A stretch of DNA of 64,000 nt from Minisyncoccota bacterium (GTDB taxonomy: Bacteria; Patescibacteriota; Minisyncoccia; Phycocordibacterales; UBA1550). Positions 6,317 through 9,586 of the stretch are shown piece after piece. The notes beneath the pieces are model-generated. The model saw nothing but the letters and a program-made list of their open reading frames with translations, made no database searches and was not told where the DNA came from. Positions within the stretch are counted from its first letter, which is position 1. The number at the start of each line of letters is the position of its first letter. The position numbers and the translations under genes are program-made. The stretch is taken from positions 57,964 through 121,963 of the forward strand of contig JBAZWZ010000002.1 in assembly GCA_041660105.1 (NCBI GenBank), read 5' to 3'.

Positions 6317-7147
6317 ATGGCGAAACAGCCCAAACTTAGTCCTAGGCAGATAATGTTCTTCCAGGCTCAAATTTGGGCCTTTTACGGGGTATCAGGCAGG
6401 AGGAATCTACCTTGGCGAAAGACAAAAAACCCTTACAAAATAATGGTTTCTGAAGTAATGCTTCAGCAGACGCAGGTCTCGCGCGTACTCGTAAAATATC
6501 CTGAATTTTTAAAGGCTTTTCCGACTGTTGAGACACTCGCAAAAGCACCTTTATCTCAAGTCCTCAAAGTCTGGCAGGGGATGGGGTACAACCGTCGCGC
6601 GCTCGCGCTCAAGCGTATGGCGGAAAAAATAGTTGCTGATTTCAATGGAAAAGTTCCACGAGCGCGACTCGACCTCGAATCACTTCCTGGAGTCGGCCCA
6701 TACACCGCAGGCGCCGTGCGTGCGTTTGCATTTAACGAGCCAGAAATATTTATTGAGACAAATATCCGTAGAATTTTCATTCATCATTTTTTCATAGACA
6801 AAGAGGGAATTAGCGATCGAGAAATTTATCCACTCGTCGAAACTACCCTCGACACAAACAATCCGCGCGAGTGGTACTGGGCACTTATGGACTACGGATC
6901 ACACTTACCAAAGATTGCGCGCAAAAATTCAAATACACAAAGCAAACACTATGTAAGGCAAAGCAAGTTTAAGGGTTCTCTCCGTGAGCTCCGCGGGAAA
7001 ATAATACGCGCGCTTGGAGACAAGCCGCAAACTCTTGTATCACTCAAGCGCGCATGCAACAATGACACAAGGATAAAAGAGGCACTGGACGCACTCACAA
7101 AAGATGGCCTCATCACCTATGAAAAAAGAAAATACCAACTTGCCTAA
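6317..7147 (+). CDS. HhH-GPD DNA glycosylase, MutY-like, lacking the Fe-S cluster loop
   Basis: LPWRKTKNPYKIMVSEVMLQQTQV and GVGPYTAGAV match the MutY catalytic domain. No Cys4 cluster and no NUDIX-like C-terminal domain follow. The MutY catalytic Asp position reads E (IETNI). Confidence 0.7.
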   Translation: MAKQPKLSPRQIMFFQAQIWAFYGVSGRRNLPWRKTKNPYKIMVSEVMLQQTQVSRVLVKYPEFLKAFPTVETLAKAPLSQVLKVWQGMGYNRRALALKRMAEKIVADFNGKVPRARLDLESLPGVGPYTAGAVRAFAFNEPEIFIETNIRRIFIHHFFIDKEGISDREIYPLVETTLDTNNPREWYWALMDYGSHLPKIARKNSNTQSKHYVRQSKFKGSLRELRGKIIRALGDKPQTLVSLKRACNNDTRIKEALDALTKDGLITYEKRKYQLA

Positions 7148-7751
7148 GATTTTGAGAACACTCAAAATACTTTACCCTAACCCCGCATGCGCCCTTCACT
7201 ACACGAAGCCGTGGGAGCTTCTCGTTGCGGTCATTCTTTCTGCACAGTGTACTGATAAAAAAGTGAATGAAGTTACAAAGGTATTATTCAAAAAATACAA
7301 AACGCTTGATGATTATGTCGCCGCAAAACCTGCAGAGTTTGAACAAGATATTCATGCGACAGGATTTTATCGCGCAAAGACAAAAAATATTCTTGCTGCG
7401 GCAAAAGTTTTGAAATATGATTTCGGTGGAAAAATCCCAAAGACAATGAGTGAGATGATCACTATCCCTGGCGTCGGCAGGAAAACTGCCAACGTGGTCT
7501 TGGGTGAGCTCTACGGCACCGCAGAAGGAATCGCAGTCGACACCCACGTTATTCGTTTGTCACAACTCTTTGGATTGACAAAGAACACCGACGCAACCAA
7601 AATAGAGCAGAACCTGATGCAGATTGTTCCCAAAAAAGATTGGGTGAGTTTTTCGCATATGCTCATCCTCTATGGACGCGAGCACTGCACCGCGCGTTGT
7701 AAACACACTGACTGCCCACTGAAAGATTTTGTAATACGTGCTAATATGTAA
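7119..7751 (+). CDS. nth: endonuclease III
   Basis: ELLVAVILSAQCTD, GVGRKTANVV, DTHV and the C-terminal C-x6-C-x2-C-x5-C (CTARCKHTDCPL) motifs. The start overlaps the preceding gene. Confidence 0.85.
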   Translation: MKKENTNLPKILRTLKILYPNPACALHYTKPWELLVAVILSAQCTDKKVNEVTKVLFKKYKTLDDYVAAKPAEFEQDIHATGFYRAKTKNILAAAKVLKYDFGGKIPKTMSEMITIPGVGRKTANVVLGELYGTAEGIAVDTHVIRLSQLFGLTKNTDATKIEQNLMQIVPKKDWVSFSHMLILYGREHCTARCKHTDCPLKDFVIRANM

Positions 7752-7758
7752 GGACTTT

Positions 7759-8958
7759 ATGGAAACCTCAGACCATTTACTTACAAACAAGGAGCTTCGA
7801 AGGGGATTTTTTGGCCTCTACTTTGGTCGCATGGCGATGTCTGTCGCAAACGGCCTTATTGGAATATTTCTTCCTATTTTTCTCTACAACCTTCTCGACG
7901 GAAATGTATCCCTCATAATGCTTTATTATGGGCTAACAGGACTCGCGTATGTTTTCCTTGTAGCATTTGGCGCACAGTTTCTCAACAAATTTGGATTTCG
8001 CAGATCTCTCGTTCTCGGAAGTTTTTTGGCAGCGGTGGTCAACGCAGCATATTTTTTTGTTACAAAAGAAAATGCCTTTCTGCTTTTGTCATGCTCGCTT
8101 GTTGCGCTCGTACTCTTTCGAATGTTCTTTTGGATTCCGTTCCATGTCGACTTTGCAATTTTTACCAACAAGGGAAAGAAGGGTGGGCAAGTGGGGCTTA
8201 TGCTTGGAACAATGACGCTCGTCGGCATCGCAGGGCCTATGATCGCAGGATACATCATTCAAAACTGGTCGATGCAAGTGCTCTTTTTTATCGGAGTCTT
8301 GGTTTATATATTAAGTATGATTCCGTTCAAGATGGTGCCACGCACCAATGAGCGTTTCAGCTGGACCTACAAAAAAGTATGGCAAGAACTTTTTGCAAAA
8401 AAGAATAGGGGAATCGTGTGGGCATCGGTAGCAGTAGGAGCTGAGGATATCATCGGCTTTACAATCTGGCCTATCTTTATTTTCGTACTACTCAAGGGCA
8501 ACTATTTTCAGGTTGGTGCACTCGAAAGTTTTATTGTTGGGATCACCGTGCTCTTGCAACTAATGTTCGGTCGCTACCTTGACCGCATAGAGAAGAAACA
8601 CAGAACACTCAGGATGAGTAGCGTCCTATATGCGTTCGGATGGATTATCAAAATTTTTGTTGCAACCGCAGCCCAAGTATTTGTCGTTGGACTCTACCAC
8701 AGGATAACCAAAGTGCTGACTGACACTTCATATGATGCTATCTTTTACGAGACAGCAGCGGACCAAGGGCACTACGTAGATGAGTATACCGTCCTGAGTG
8801 AAATGGCAATAAACATCGGGAGGGTAGTCGGGACTGGAGCAGTAGCAATCCTTTTGGTATTTTTGAGCCTCAAGTGGACATTCATCGTTGGGGCTGCAGC
8901 TTCGCTCGTATTTATTACGCTTTCTGCAACGCATCAGATGAACGAGAAGCGCGCTTAA
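7759..8958 (+). CDS. MFS-type transporter (multi-TM)
   Basis: About 12 predicted hydrophobic helices and a GRxxDR-like loop (GRYLDRIEKK). Confidence 0.6.
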   Translation: METSDHLLTNKELRRGFFGLYFGRMAMSVANGLIGIFLPIFLYNLLDGNVSLIMLYYGLTGLAYVFLVAFGAQFLNKFGFRRSLVLGSFLAAVVNAAYFFVTKENAFLLLSCSLVALVLFRMFFWIPFHVDFAIFTNKGKKGGQVGLMLGTMTLVGIAGPMIAGYIIQNWSMQVLFFIGVLVYILSMIPFKMVPRTNERFSWTYKKVWQELFAKKNRGIVWASVAVGAEDIIGFTIWPIFIFVLLKGNYFQVGALESFIVGITVLLQLMFGRYLDRIEKKHRTLRMSSVLYAFGWIIKIFVATAAQVFVVGLYHRITKVLTDTSYDAIFYETAADQGHYVDEYTVLSEMAINIGRVVGTGAVAILLVFLSLKWTFIVGAAASLVFITLSATHQMNEKRA

Positions 8959-9035
8959 ACCAACGCCTTGGTGGTGGGTATTGATACTGAAGGGGGAAAG
9001 GGCTCTATTCTATATGTATGCGGGATATACGTACG

Positions 9036-9120
9036 TCGCACAATATATCTTTTGCGACGTGCTCAGAAATCCTGTAAGGATTACTTGAGTACGTCGCAAA
9101 AGAGCCTCCATTGTGCGACC
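9036..9120. repeat. cluster of GTCGCA(A/C)AA / TT(T/G)TGCGAC inverted repeats forming at least two hairpins
   Basis: ACGTCGCACAA-tatatc-TTTTGCGACGT and GTCGCAAAAG-agcctccat-TGTGCGAC, plus a central AATCCtgtaAGGATT hairpin. This is the 3' intergenic region of convergent genes. Confidence 0.4.
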
Positions 9121-9121
9121 T

Positions 9122-9180
9122 CGAATCAGCTGATTCTGAATTAGCAAATTCACGTCTCGGACGAAATCTTGGACATAAAC
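9122..9180 (+). repeat. copy 1 of the palindromic element (CGAATCAGCTGATTC ... CTTGGACATAAAC)
   Basis: Contains the 14-bp perfect palindrome GAATCAGCTGATTC and the shared TTGGACATAAAC module. Confidence 0.6.
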
Positions 9181-9223
9181 ATAAAAATGTGCGCACAATC
9201 CAGGTTTGCGACAAAACTAAAAA

Positions 9224-9466
9224 TTATTTTCCGAGAATTTGTGCTGTGGTAGTTGCTGTTGATGTAGCCGTTGAACTCGCTGACTCGAGTAAATCAATTG
9301 CGCTACCCGTCAGAAATTTAAATAATGGTAAAATATAATTTATCCAAGCTTCACTCAAAATTGCTATAATCTGTTTTACTATCGGCATTTGAGCCACCGC
9401 ATGCAAATCTATATTAAAATATGCGAGCCCCGCAATGATAATAACTGCCAAAAACACGATCTGCAT
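9224..9466 (-). CDS. small membrane protein (about 80 aa)
   Basis: MQIVFLAVIIIAGLAYF... has a TM helix, and AGGAGGG lies just upstream of the ATG at 9466. The gene is flanked by copies 1 and 2 of the palindromic element. The alternative longer start (MKRK at about 9562) would translate through copy 2. Confidence 0.45.
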   Translation of the reverse strand: MQIVFLAVIIIAGLAYFNIDLHAVAQMPIVKQIIAILSEAWINYILPLFKFLTGSAIDLLESASSTATSTATTTAQILGK

Positions 9467-9518
9467 AAACCCTCCTGAGTTTTTCGAAGAAAAATTCTGG
9501 CGGGTAAATCCGCGGTTA

Positions 9519-9550
9519 CGAATCAGCTGATTCGTGTCTTGGACATAAAC
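9519..9550 (+). repeat. copy 2 of the palindromic element (CGAATCAGCTGATTCG-tg-TCTTGGACATAAAC)
   Basis: 16-bp perfect palindrome followed directly by the TTGGACATAAAC module. A TAGTAAT -10-like box sits 16 nt downstream. Confidence 0.6.
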
Positions 9551-9586
9551 TTTTCTTTTCATAGTAATTATATTGTACATTGTTTT

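Follow-up and report, generated by a model that had tools for sequence, protein, structure and literature searches.

A 64-kb window of the Minisyncoccota bacterium assembly GCA_041660105.1 (contig JBAZWZ010000002.1, positions 57,964 to 121,963; the window is the whole stretch of 64,000 nucleotides analysed here) contains an array of inverted repeats in which, as we read it, two layers can be told apart. The first is a 28-bp site at positions 9033-9060 on the minus strand, which is very probably the chromosomal dif site of this organism. dif is the 28-bp target of Xer-type tyrosine recombinases, which resolve chromosome dimers at the replication terminus. The second layer consists of additional dif-like sites and hairpins at 9061-9212, which may be a dif-associated hairpin unit derived from insertion of a hairpin or dumbbell DNA at dif; for this part taken alone, the odds appear to be close to even or a shade lower. 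To the reading as a whole, i.e. a dif site accompanied by an insertion-footprint unit, we assign a probability of roughly 55%. The repeats take up the whole 265-bp intergenic gap between two convergent genes. An earlier note on this DNA, drawn up from its letters, had listed hairpins and missed that one of them, at 9033-9060, is a 28-bp site of deep conservation located at the replication terminus. Loci and contigs used for comparison are designated by numbers with the prefix L.

A conserved 28-bp site with the design of dif

Site 1, the dif core, reads ACGTCGCAAAA GATATA TTGTGCGACGT on the minus strand and is composed of two 11-bp arms around a hexamer (11-6-11). The arm at 9033-9043 (minus strand) is the invariant one and presumably of XerD type (D arm hereafter), the central hexamer occupies 9044-9049 (minus strand), and the variable arm at 9050-9060 (minus strand) would correspond to the XerC type (C arm). 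In Proteobacteria, dif is made of two 11-bp inverted arms around a hexamer, is situated in non-coding DNA at the skew peak and has a XerD arm that is better conserved than the XerC arm (PMC2731167).

One reason for reading site 1 as dif is its conservation, nearly base for base and within unconserved flanks, in more than 30 Paceibacteria genomes. When the intergenic region was compared by blastn with 43 related loci, the segment 9025-9058 was practically the only conserved one, and it matched at 92-100% even where the M23 peptidase encoded nearby was only 36-40% identical. The 28-bp core differed from its counterparts by 0-6 mismatches, and the clade consensus was ATGTCGCAAAAGATATATTGTGCGACAT. 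Across 31 species-level genomes AAAGATATATTGTGCGAC was nearly invariant and the opposite arm variable; position by position, the D-type arm TTGTGCGAC was again nearly invariant, with the left arm conserved at 40-90% and the flanks at 30-50%. A relaxed search allowing up to 9 mismatches did not find the 28-mer in 11 related loci that lack the core.

The second reason is that the site is intergenic in every locus and single-copy in each stretch examined, both in the stretches of the related loci and in the 64-kb window. The third is its location at the convergence of gene orientation and at a flip of GC skew: in nearly all loci the genes to the left of the site are almost exclusively on one strand and those to the right on the other, mean skew is +0.057 on the left and -0.087 on the right, and the left value exceeds the right one in 24 of 25 loci (Wilcoxon p = 2e-7). 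The fourth comes from integrase-less filamentous prophages that are bounded by direct copies of the site, as described below.

It should be added that XerD-like open reading frames (ORFs) were seen in four relatives, L017 (8216-9118), L041 (7784-8698), L018 (11342-12244) and L028 (9207-9899), in which the stretch examined holds no 28-mer. The XerD-like gene follows the M23 peptidase gene at a distance of 0.5-4 kb, roughly where dif lies in other loci. The four lineages may rely on another dif that is linked to its recombinase gene, like those of the XerS and XerH systems.

Filamentous prophages bounded by the site

Integrase-less filamentous prophages with dif-like boundary repeats are a signature of the exploitation of host Xer recombinases (PMC9226527, PMC12715192). 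In L062 (2200-7631) and L066 (2067-7517) an element of 5.4 kb is enclosed by two direct copies of the 28-bp site, the second of which has a degenerate variable arm; a murG-like gene lies on the upstream side of the element and convergent genes on the downstream side. Both elements encode a Zot-like ATPase, a rolling-circle replication protein (Rep) of the G2P family and a DUF2726 nuclease-like protein, and no tyrosine recombinase or integrase was detected within either of them. The 19-nt core of the site was also found exactly in 26 IMG/VR contigs, among which 17 have a gene for a Zot-like assembly ATPase; a G2P-type rolling-circle Rep is encoded by several. Elements of the L062/L066 kind are likely phages of Patescibacteria-like hosts. 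To our knowledge, few phages of Patescibacteria, also named Candidate Phyla Radiation (CPR), are known. Further inovirus-type contigs were L045-L061 and L068-L070, many contigs being 4-6 kb in size; the sample identifiers of some of the inovirus contigs look like those of human-microbiome projects.

Two additional dif-like sites in the window

Beyond site 1 the window holds two more sites of the same kind. Site 2 (9093-9119) is inverted relative to dif and has a 9-bp centre; it reads GTCGCAAAA GAGCCTCCA TTGTGCGAC on the plus strand and GTCGCACAA TGGAGGCTC TTTTGCGAC on the minus strand (9119-9093), with its C' arm at 9093-9101 and its D' arm at 9111-9119. Site 3 (9189-9212, minus strand) has the orientation of dif and a 5-bp centre, reading GTCGCAAAC CTGGA TTGTGCGCAC, in which 9204-9212 form the C arm, 9199-9203 the centre and 9189-9198 the D arm. 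Between dif and site 2 lies hairpin B (9059-9092), a self-complementary spacer of 34 nt that extends the pairing of the C-type arm of dif with the inverted C' arm, and sites 2 and 3 are separated by loop A (9120-9188, 69 nt). On the minus strand the order is thus site 3 (C-centre-D), loop A, inverted site 2 (D'-centre-C'), hairpin B and dif (C-GATATA-D), and the unit measures 154 nt from C arm to C arm.

All six repeats of the region are explained as arms of the three dif-like sites, which alternate in orientation. The earlier note had counted six heptamers in alternating orientation within about 180 bp. The observation was borne out. The literal heptamer GTCGCAA/TTGCGAC occurs only three times; the repeats are five exact hexamers GTCGCA/TGCGAC, at 9035 (+), 9053 (-), 9093 (+), 9114 (-) and 9207 (-), and a degenerate sixth copy, GTGCGCACAA, at 9189-9198, with which the orientation runs + - + - + -. 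The 9-mer GTCGCAMAA is found four times in the 64-kb window, each time here and inside 85 bp. When the 36 hexamer matches of the window were placed at random, at least five fell within 180 nt in about 1e-4 of the trials.

The same note had considered an iteron-like array of protein-binding sites. That the repeats are binding sites fits their identification as arms of Xer-type sites. It is a different matter with replication iterons or operators of a transcription factor, for example NrdR-box-like ones, a reading that we find barely credible. The half-sites are palindromic and repeated, and the core CACAATATAT resembles what we take to be part of the NrdR box. On the other side, an operator would have no promoter to control, because in most loci the site is flanked by convergent genes that face it with their 3' ends; the position at a skew switch is typical of a terminus and not of an origin, and there is no nrd or rep gene nearby.

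Pairing analysis located the structures that the earlier note had described, namely at least two near-perfect hairpins and an AATCC-tgta-AGGATT stem. Positions 9033-9046 pair with 9047-9060 (14 nt, 86%), 9048-9065 with 9086-9103 (18 nt, 94%) and 9035-9044 with 9110-9119 (10 of 10), and the AATCC-tgta-AGGATT apex is at 9069-9082. Structure prediction on both strands, which had been proposed as a check, was run on 9025-9220 as DNA, and each strand folds far better than shuffled sequence (z = -7.3 and -7.7). In the minimum-energy fold of the window, dif is the partner of site 2. In single-stranded form, either site 3 or dif is available to site 2 for pairing, and each choice restores a duplex whose two arms for Xer binding enclose a bulged centre.

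Layout and covariation of the unit in other genomes

Metagenomes were scanned for contigs with an inverted arm 25-45 nt upstream of dif, which returned 16 contigs. The layout seen in the window recurs in L006, L005 and L087, in part in L002, and in most of the 16 metagenome contigs; among the latter, no recognisable site 3 or hairpin A (the pairing of site 3 with site 2 around loop A) was present in L073 and L079 and, largely, in L071 and L083. Where flanking sequence is present the units are downstream of gltX and of the M23 peptidase gene, whose products share 35-77% identity with the M23 peptidase of the window. Read towards dif, the layout in relatives is a C arm, a 5-nt centre, a D arm, a loop of 8-13 nt, a D' arm, a second centre (centre'') of 9-11 nt ending in ATC, a C' arm, a self-complementary spacer of 25-45 nt, and dif. 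From C arm to C arm this amounts to 90-107 nt, and the greater length of the window unit is due to an insert in loop A. Counterparts of site 2, with a 9-11-bp centre, were recognised in L006, L087, the loci L071-L086 and, partly, L002; counterparts of site 3 (C-5 nt-D), upstream of hairpin A, were recognised in L072, L074, L076, L078, L080, L081, L085, L086, L006 and L087. The trinucleotide ATC, which is the complement of the GAT of dif, stands beside C' in 16 of 18 loci, and the rest of this centre is unrelated to dif. In L005 and L006 the C' arm matches the unusual dif C arm of their own genome.

Hairpin B is unrelated in sequence between loci (its first 8 nt are 33% identical), and its folding z lies between -3 and -7.5 in 15 of 18 loci. 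Covariation was assessed in a gap-free alignment of 17 loci that covered the arms and the outer 9 bp of the spacer. The proportion of paired cells is 92% here, 76% for shuffles and 36-51% for slid controls; compensatory cells number 59, against 19 +/- 3.4 in shuffles, none of 500 of which reached 59, and all nine variable pairs (9/9) are changed on both sides. The check for covariation suggested by the earlier note thus gave strongly covarying stems, with Watson-Crick pairs only. G.U accounts for 7 of the 32 non-Watson-Crick cells, about its chance share, which speaks for a palindrome in DNA and not for a helix of RNA. When the stretch from site 3 through loop A to site 2 is folded as a consensus, C pairs with C' and D with D', and seven pairs are changed on both sides; hairpin A has a folding z of -3.8 or lower in 8 of 12 loci. 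In both centres the four bases beside the D arms covary as well (TGGA/TCCA, GCCA/TGGC, GCGA/TCGC, GCCG/CGGC, CAGA/TCTG).

These data bear on the proposal of the earlier note that the region specifies a structured small RNA. Such an RNA could, for example, have two hairpins and derive from the 3' untranslated region of the operon of the M23 peptidase and small genes. Strong predicted structure, covarying stems and a position downstream of a minus-strand operon would all suit such an RNA. We nevertheless consider it very improbable. Rfam yielded no match at gathering thresholds and, at permissive E-values, nothing but microRNA hairpins in 8900-9320, whose 15-20 bits fall far short of the 70-86 bits required; the two strands fold with equal strength and G.U pairs are not enriched; there is no promoter or terminator signal, and the polarity of the T-run and A-run is the reverse of that in a terminator. 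Moreover, the sole sequence conserved deeply, across the clade, is a 28-bp site of recombinase type, and the tandem arrays (see below) and prophage junctions at the site point to DNA.

Covariation of DNA palindromes may also arise in another way. Template switching, known as quasipalindrome correction, can preserve perfect DNA palindromes without selection. The units might then be neutral by-products, in which a quasi-palindromic dif was duplicated in inverted form by template switching during replication of the terminus and the palindromes were kept by the same mutational process, with neither function nor mobility. A structure that is symmetric between the strands, that pairs in Watson-Crick fashion only and that shows no excess of G.U agrees with this, as do two identical units in L085, which fit local duplication; in addition, inverted repeats are reported to form at the termini of circular chromosomes (PMC5345009). 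We judge it rather improbable all the same. Site 2 is no simple inverted copy of dif, its centre being 9-11 bp long, and this centre is composite: one end matches dif (ATC/GAT) and the other has its pairing partner in the 5-bp centre of site 3. The combination is seen repeatedly and in varying sequence (TGGA/TCCA, GCCA/TGGC and others), and tandem units in L086, L080 and L074 have hairpin B sequences unrelated to each other.

The window copy of the unit

Compared with its relatives, the unit in the window looks like an old, partly decayed copy with a 69-nt insert in loop A, because pairing between the centres of site 3 and site 2 has been lost (CTGGA versus TGGAG), the ATC beside C' has become CTC (one mismatch), hairpin B has three mismatches, and loop A itself has been enlarged; L087, the nearest relative with the same synteny, has a loop A of 10 nt. 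The earlier note had mentioned the decayed end of a mobile element as one option, and this comes near to the insertion footprint that we prefer for the extra sites and to the partly decayed state of this copy.

The insert in loop A contains a perfect 14-bp palindrome, GAATCAGCTGATTC, at 9123-9136, a degenerate copy of it at 9138-9151 and the motif CTTGGACATAAAC at 9168-9180. The palindrome occurs again at 9520-9533, within a second copy of the loop-A motifs (CGAATCAGCTGATTCG, CTTGGACATAAAC) at 9519-9551, in the leader of the adjacent small membrane-protein gene; this second copy is related to the insert and not to dif. None of the insert motifs was found in any of the 86 related loci searched, and by this comparison the insert is lineage-specific. 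The repeated palindrome and motif could reflect a local duplication or an operator.

Distribution and tandem arrays

Among about 31 species-representative genomes that have the site, the unit was seen only in L002, L005 and L006, apart from the window. Of relatives with 70-80% M23 identity, L076, L087 and L002 have the unit and L003, L004, L088, L091, L092/L093 and L095 have a bare dif, and on a neighbour-joining (NJ) tree of the M23 peptidase presence and absence of the unit are interspersed; the unit call for L034 in this tree is probably a false positive of the heuristic. In L088 a scaffold gap (a run of N) lies about 75 nt upstream of dif.

Units stand in tandem in L074, L080, L085 and L086; L082, with no more than an additional arm upstream, is a possible further case. 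The tandem copies of L085 are identical to each other, those of L086, L080 and L074 have unrelated hairpin B sequences, and in L074 and L080 the unit farther from dif is the more degenerate one. Across 847 kb, inverted C'/C pairs adjoin a dif core in 22 of 24 occurrences. The contig of L085 starts inside its array of two identical units (1-161), which suggests that assemblies break at tandem units and that copy number in metagenome-assembled genomes (MAGs) may be underestimated.

The extra sites could alternatively be accessory DNA kept by the host, i.e. Xer-binding or architectural sequences, cer/psi-like or cruciform, that control recombination at dif or aid fork fusion and termination. In favour of this, the arms of the extra sites have the same sequence as those of dif, the layout and the lengths of the centres are kept across lineages with 35-77% M23 identity, the stems covary, and the units always abut dif. 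We hold it to be unlikely, given that most relatives, including the close ones L003, L004, L088, L091, L092 and L095, manage with a bare dif, that units are arranged in tandem with decayed distal copies, and that the D-type arms of sites 2 and 3 drift (TTTTACGAC, TTATACGAC, TTGTACAAC) yet keep pairing, which would be odd for protein-binding sites.

A possible origin by insertion at dif

In the model that we prefer for the unit, a hairpin or dumbbell DNA of about 90-107 nt would recombine with chromosomal dif in the manner of CTX phage, by means of the host Xer recombinase. The incoming molecule would be a circular single strand with the order centre', D, loop A, D', centre'', C', hairpin B, C, folded into one dif-like site. 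One pair of strands would be exchanged at the border of the variable (XerC-type) arm and the centre, and replication would then fix the intermediate. The product would consist of the chromosomal C arm, the inserted sequence in the order just given, and the chromosomal centre and D arm, so that a working dif would be regenerated on the D side. Repeated insertions would give tandem arrays in which the oldest unit is farthest from dif.

Four features speak for this model: the conserved ATC beside C' would pair with the GAT that comes in from dif, the regenerated dif lies on the side of the invariant arm, there are arrays whose most decayed unit is the one farthest from dif, and the distribution is patchy. 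The anatomy, the conservation, the position at the terminus, the covariation, the patchy and tandem distribution and the prophages at the site are observed; the assignment of arms to Xer proteins, the pathway of strand exchange, the single-stranded form and the mobility are inferred. A further step would be to see in the 90-107-nt units a class of miniature, gene-less mobile DNA, a single-stranded "dumbbell" with little beyond a folded dif-like site; this we regard as doubtful.

Several observations weigh against the two-layer reading. As to the dif layer, there is no flip of GC skew at the site in this window or in the closest relative, L002; gene orientation in the window does converge on the site, and the 9 kb to its left have a slightly negative skew where a positive one is expected. 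No Xer gene was detected by tblastn with XerD within the 64-kb window. Identity to the dif of Escherichia coli is 16/28, a level reached by 58 28-mers of the window, and as such weak evidence this similarity is not relied on.

As to the unit, no phage or plasmid with such a hairpin attP came to light, two scans of viral contigs giving no hits, and no free or circular form was encountered; the search around the units revealed no adjoining prophage genes. The unit carries no cargo; loop A, in the position of a "body", is 8-13 nt long, or 69 nt here, and has no ORFs. We know of no means of replication or of spread from cell to cell for an element of 90-107 nt. The number of metagenome loci, 16, says nothing on frequency because the selection pattern required an inverted arm; repeated gains and a single gain with later losses cannot be told apart on the M23 NJ tree; and covariation is no proof of function, as quasipalindrome correction can keep palindromes perfect.

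Comparison with known systems

Site 1 shares with the known dif/Xer systems (XerC/XerD-dif, XerS-difSL, XerH-difH and archaeal XerA-dif) the 28-bp, 11-6-11 design with inverted arms, the unequal conservation of the arms, with the inner arm positions conserved most, the non-coding place at a switch of gene orientation and GC skew, and the use by integrase-less filamentous phages. It differs in that its sequence is lineage-specific, that its two arms differ from each other by one base, and that it is tightly syntenic with the murG-gltX-M23 peptidase cluster across a class-level clade. Arms so nearly identical could fit a single recombinase.

A close parallel to the unit is the attP(+) of CTX phage. 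In that phage attP1, with a 12-bp centre, and attP2, with a centre of 5-7 bp, are inverted relative to each other, and integration needs homology beside the XerC arm (PMC4246890); the exchange, XerC first, is resolved by replication, and a new dif arises on one side of each element of an array (PMC9226527). Both systems have two inverted dif-like sites with unequal centres (5 and 9-11 bp here, 5-7 and 12 in CTX) whose folding gives a hairpin with the two binding arms restored on either side of a bulged centre, and in both the homology to dif is limited to bases beside the XerC-type arm (here ATC versus GAT). CTX phage inserts on the side of the variable arm, with dif regenerated opposite, and the present units would do the same; both occur in tandem arrays. 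The differences are that the unit is without a phage body, being 90-107 nt long (154 nt in the window) with 8-13 nt at the position of the genome, that the apex hairpin B is 25-45 nt instead of about 90, that the host is a CPR bacterium and that no free form is known.

Formally the same layout is found in integron attC sites (R''-L''-variable terminal structure-L'-R'), with conserved inverted boxes, an unpaired central spacer, a terminal hairpin of variable sequence and conserved structure, arrays beside a single fixed site in double-stranded DNA and a tyrosine-family recombinase. Here, however, there is no IntI-type integrase, attI, cassette promoter or cassette ORF; the boxes are dif arms and not RYYYAAC/GTTRRRY, and the fixed partner is dif at the terminus. 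The pdif/dif modules of Acinetobacter likewise have successive Xer-type sites in alternation (C-D, D-C, C-D). Those modules are kilobase-sized, gene-carrying and mostly plasmid-borne, whereas the present intervals, of 8-70 nt and of 25-45 nt, lie in the chromosome and do not code for protein.

The literature searched yielded no account of a dif site in CPR bacteria. The dif assignment would be a well-known kind of site in an under-studied phylum, and the dif-associated hairpin units, as far as the literature searched shows, an undescribed variant of modules based on Xer sites.

Genomic neighbourhood and rejected candidates

The last plus-strand gene ahead of the repeat region encodes a major facilitator superfamily (MFS) transporter (7738-8958), and the first minus-strand gene past it a small membrane protein (9224-9466). 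The latter is preceded on the minus strand by murG, gltX and the M23 peptidase gene, and the gene order around the site is shared with relatives (gltX-M23 synteny). Relatives of the M23 peptidase come from Yonath-, Nomura- and Kaiserbacteria-like MAGs of the Paceibacteria and place the window in Patescibacteria/CPR, the closest of those found having 75-80% identity to the window protein. Exact look-ups of this protein and of both forms of the small protein, made in search of variants at strain level, returned no record. The small membrane-protein gene probably starts at 9466, after GGAGG. A mechanically called ORF of 118 aa spans 9224-9580 (minus strand), with MQIVFLAV... beginning at 9466 directly after GGAGG; this start and the N-terminus are conserved in L002, and the 38 codons upstream are not.

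In agreement with the earlier note, no coding potential is evident in the repeat region itself, where the overlapping ORFs are short and unconserved; those of 58-75 aa were rejected as genes or pseudogenes. One of the short ORFs has "VYVQD..NQLIR" in common with the annotated N-terminus of the neighbouring small-protein ORF, a similarity that indicates a DNA repeat and not a protein family, because this stretch is untranslated leader given the conserved start at 9466. tRNA, tmRNA and Rfam families (gathering thresholds) were not detected anywhere in the 64-kb window. Two more candidates were tried and rejected. A scan found no intrinsic terminator inside 9000-9220, where TTTT stands before and AAAA after the hairpin on both strands, and an integron attC array was discarded as tblastn with XerD detected no tyrosine recombinase in the window and the genes nearby specify an MFS transporter, a small membrane protein and an M23 peptidase.

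Two adjacent genes for HhH-GPD (endonuclease III-like) glycosylases lie at 6317-7147 and 7104-7751, 1.3-2.7 kb from dif, and one such gene, with 75% identity, also adjoins dif in L085. Endonuclease III reportedly assists the integration of CTX phage at dif (PMC3442271). The vicinity of these genes to dif may be a coincidence.

Significance

The site offers a sequence-defined dif for a large uncultured clade of CPR/Patescibacteria (Paceibacteria, with Yonath-, Nomura- and Kaiserbacteria-like MAGs). Such a sequence marks the replication terminus in fragmentary MAGs, aids checks of assemblies and of circularisation, predicts where prophages exploiting Xer are to be sought, and exposes the inovirus-type prophages present there. 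If the units are host accessory sites instead of insertions, they would represent an unusual control of Xer recombination in reduced genomes. If they do insert, they would be minimal Xer substrates, showing how little DNA suffices to parasitise the machinery of dimer resolution; one simple design would then link the attP of CTX phage, integron attC and pdif modules, and a possible route to site-specific integration tools may open for organisms with almost no genetics. Should the units prove to be gene-less mobile DNA, they would be the smallest site-specific integrative elements known, piling up like cassettes without genes.

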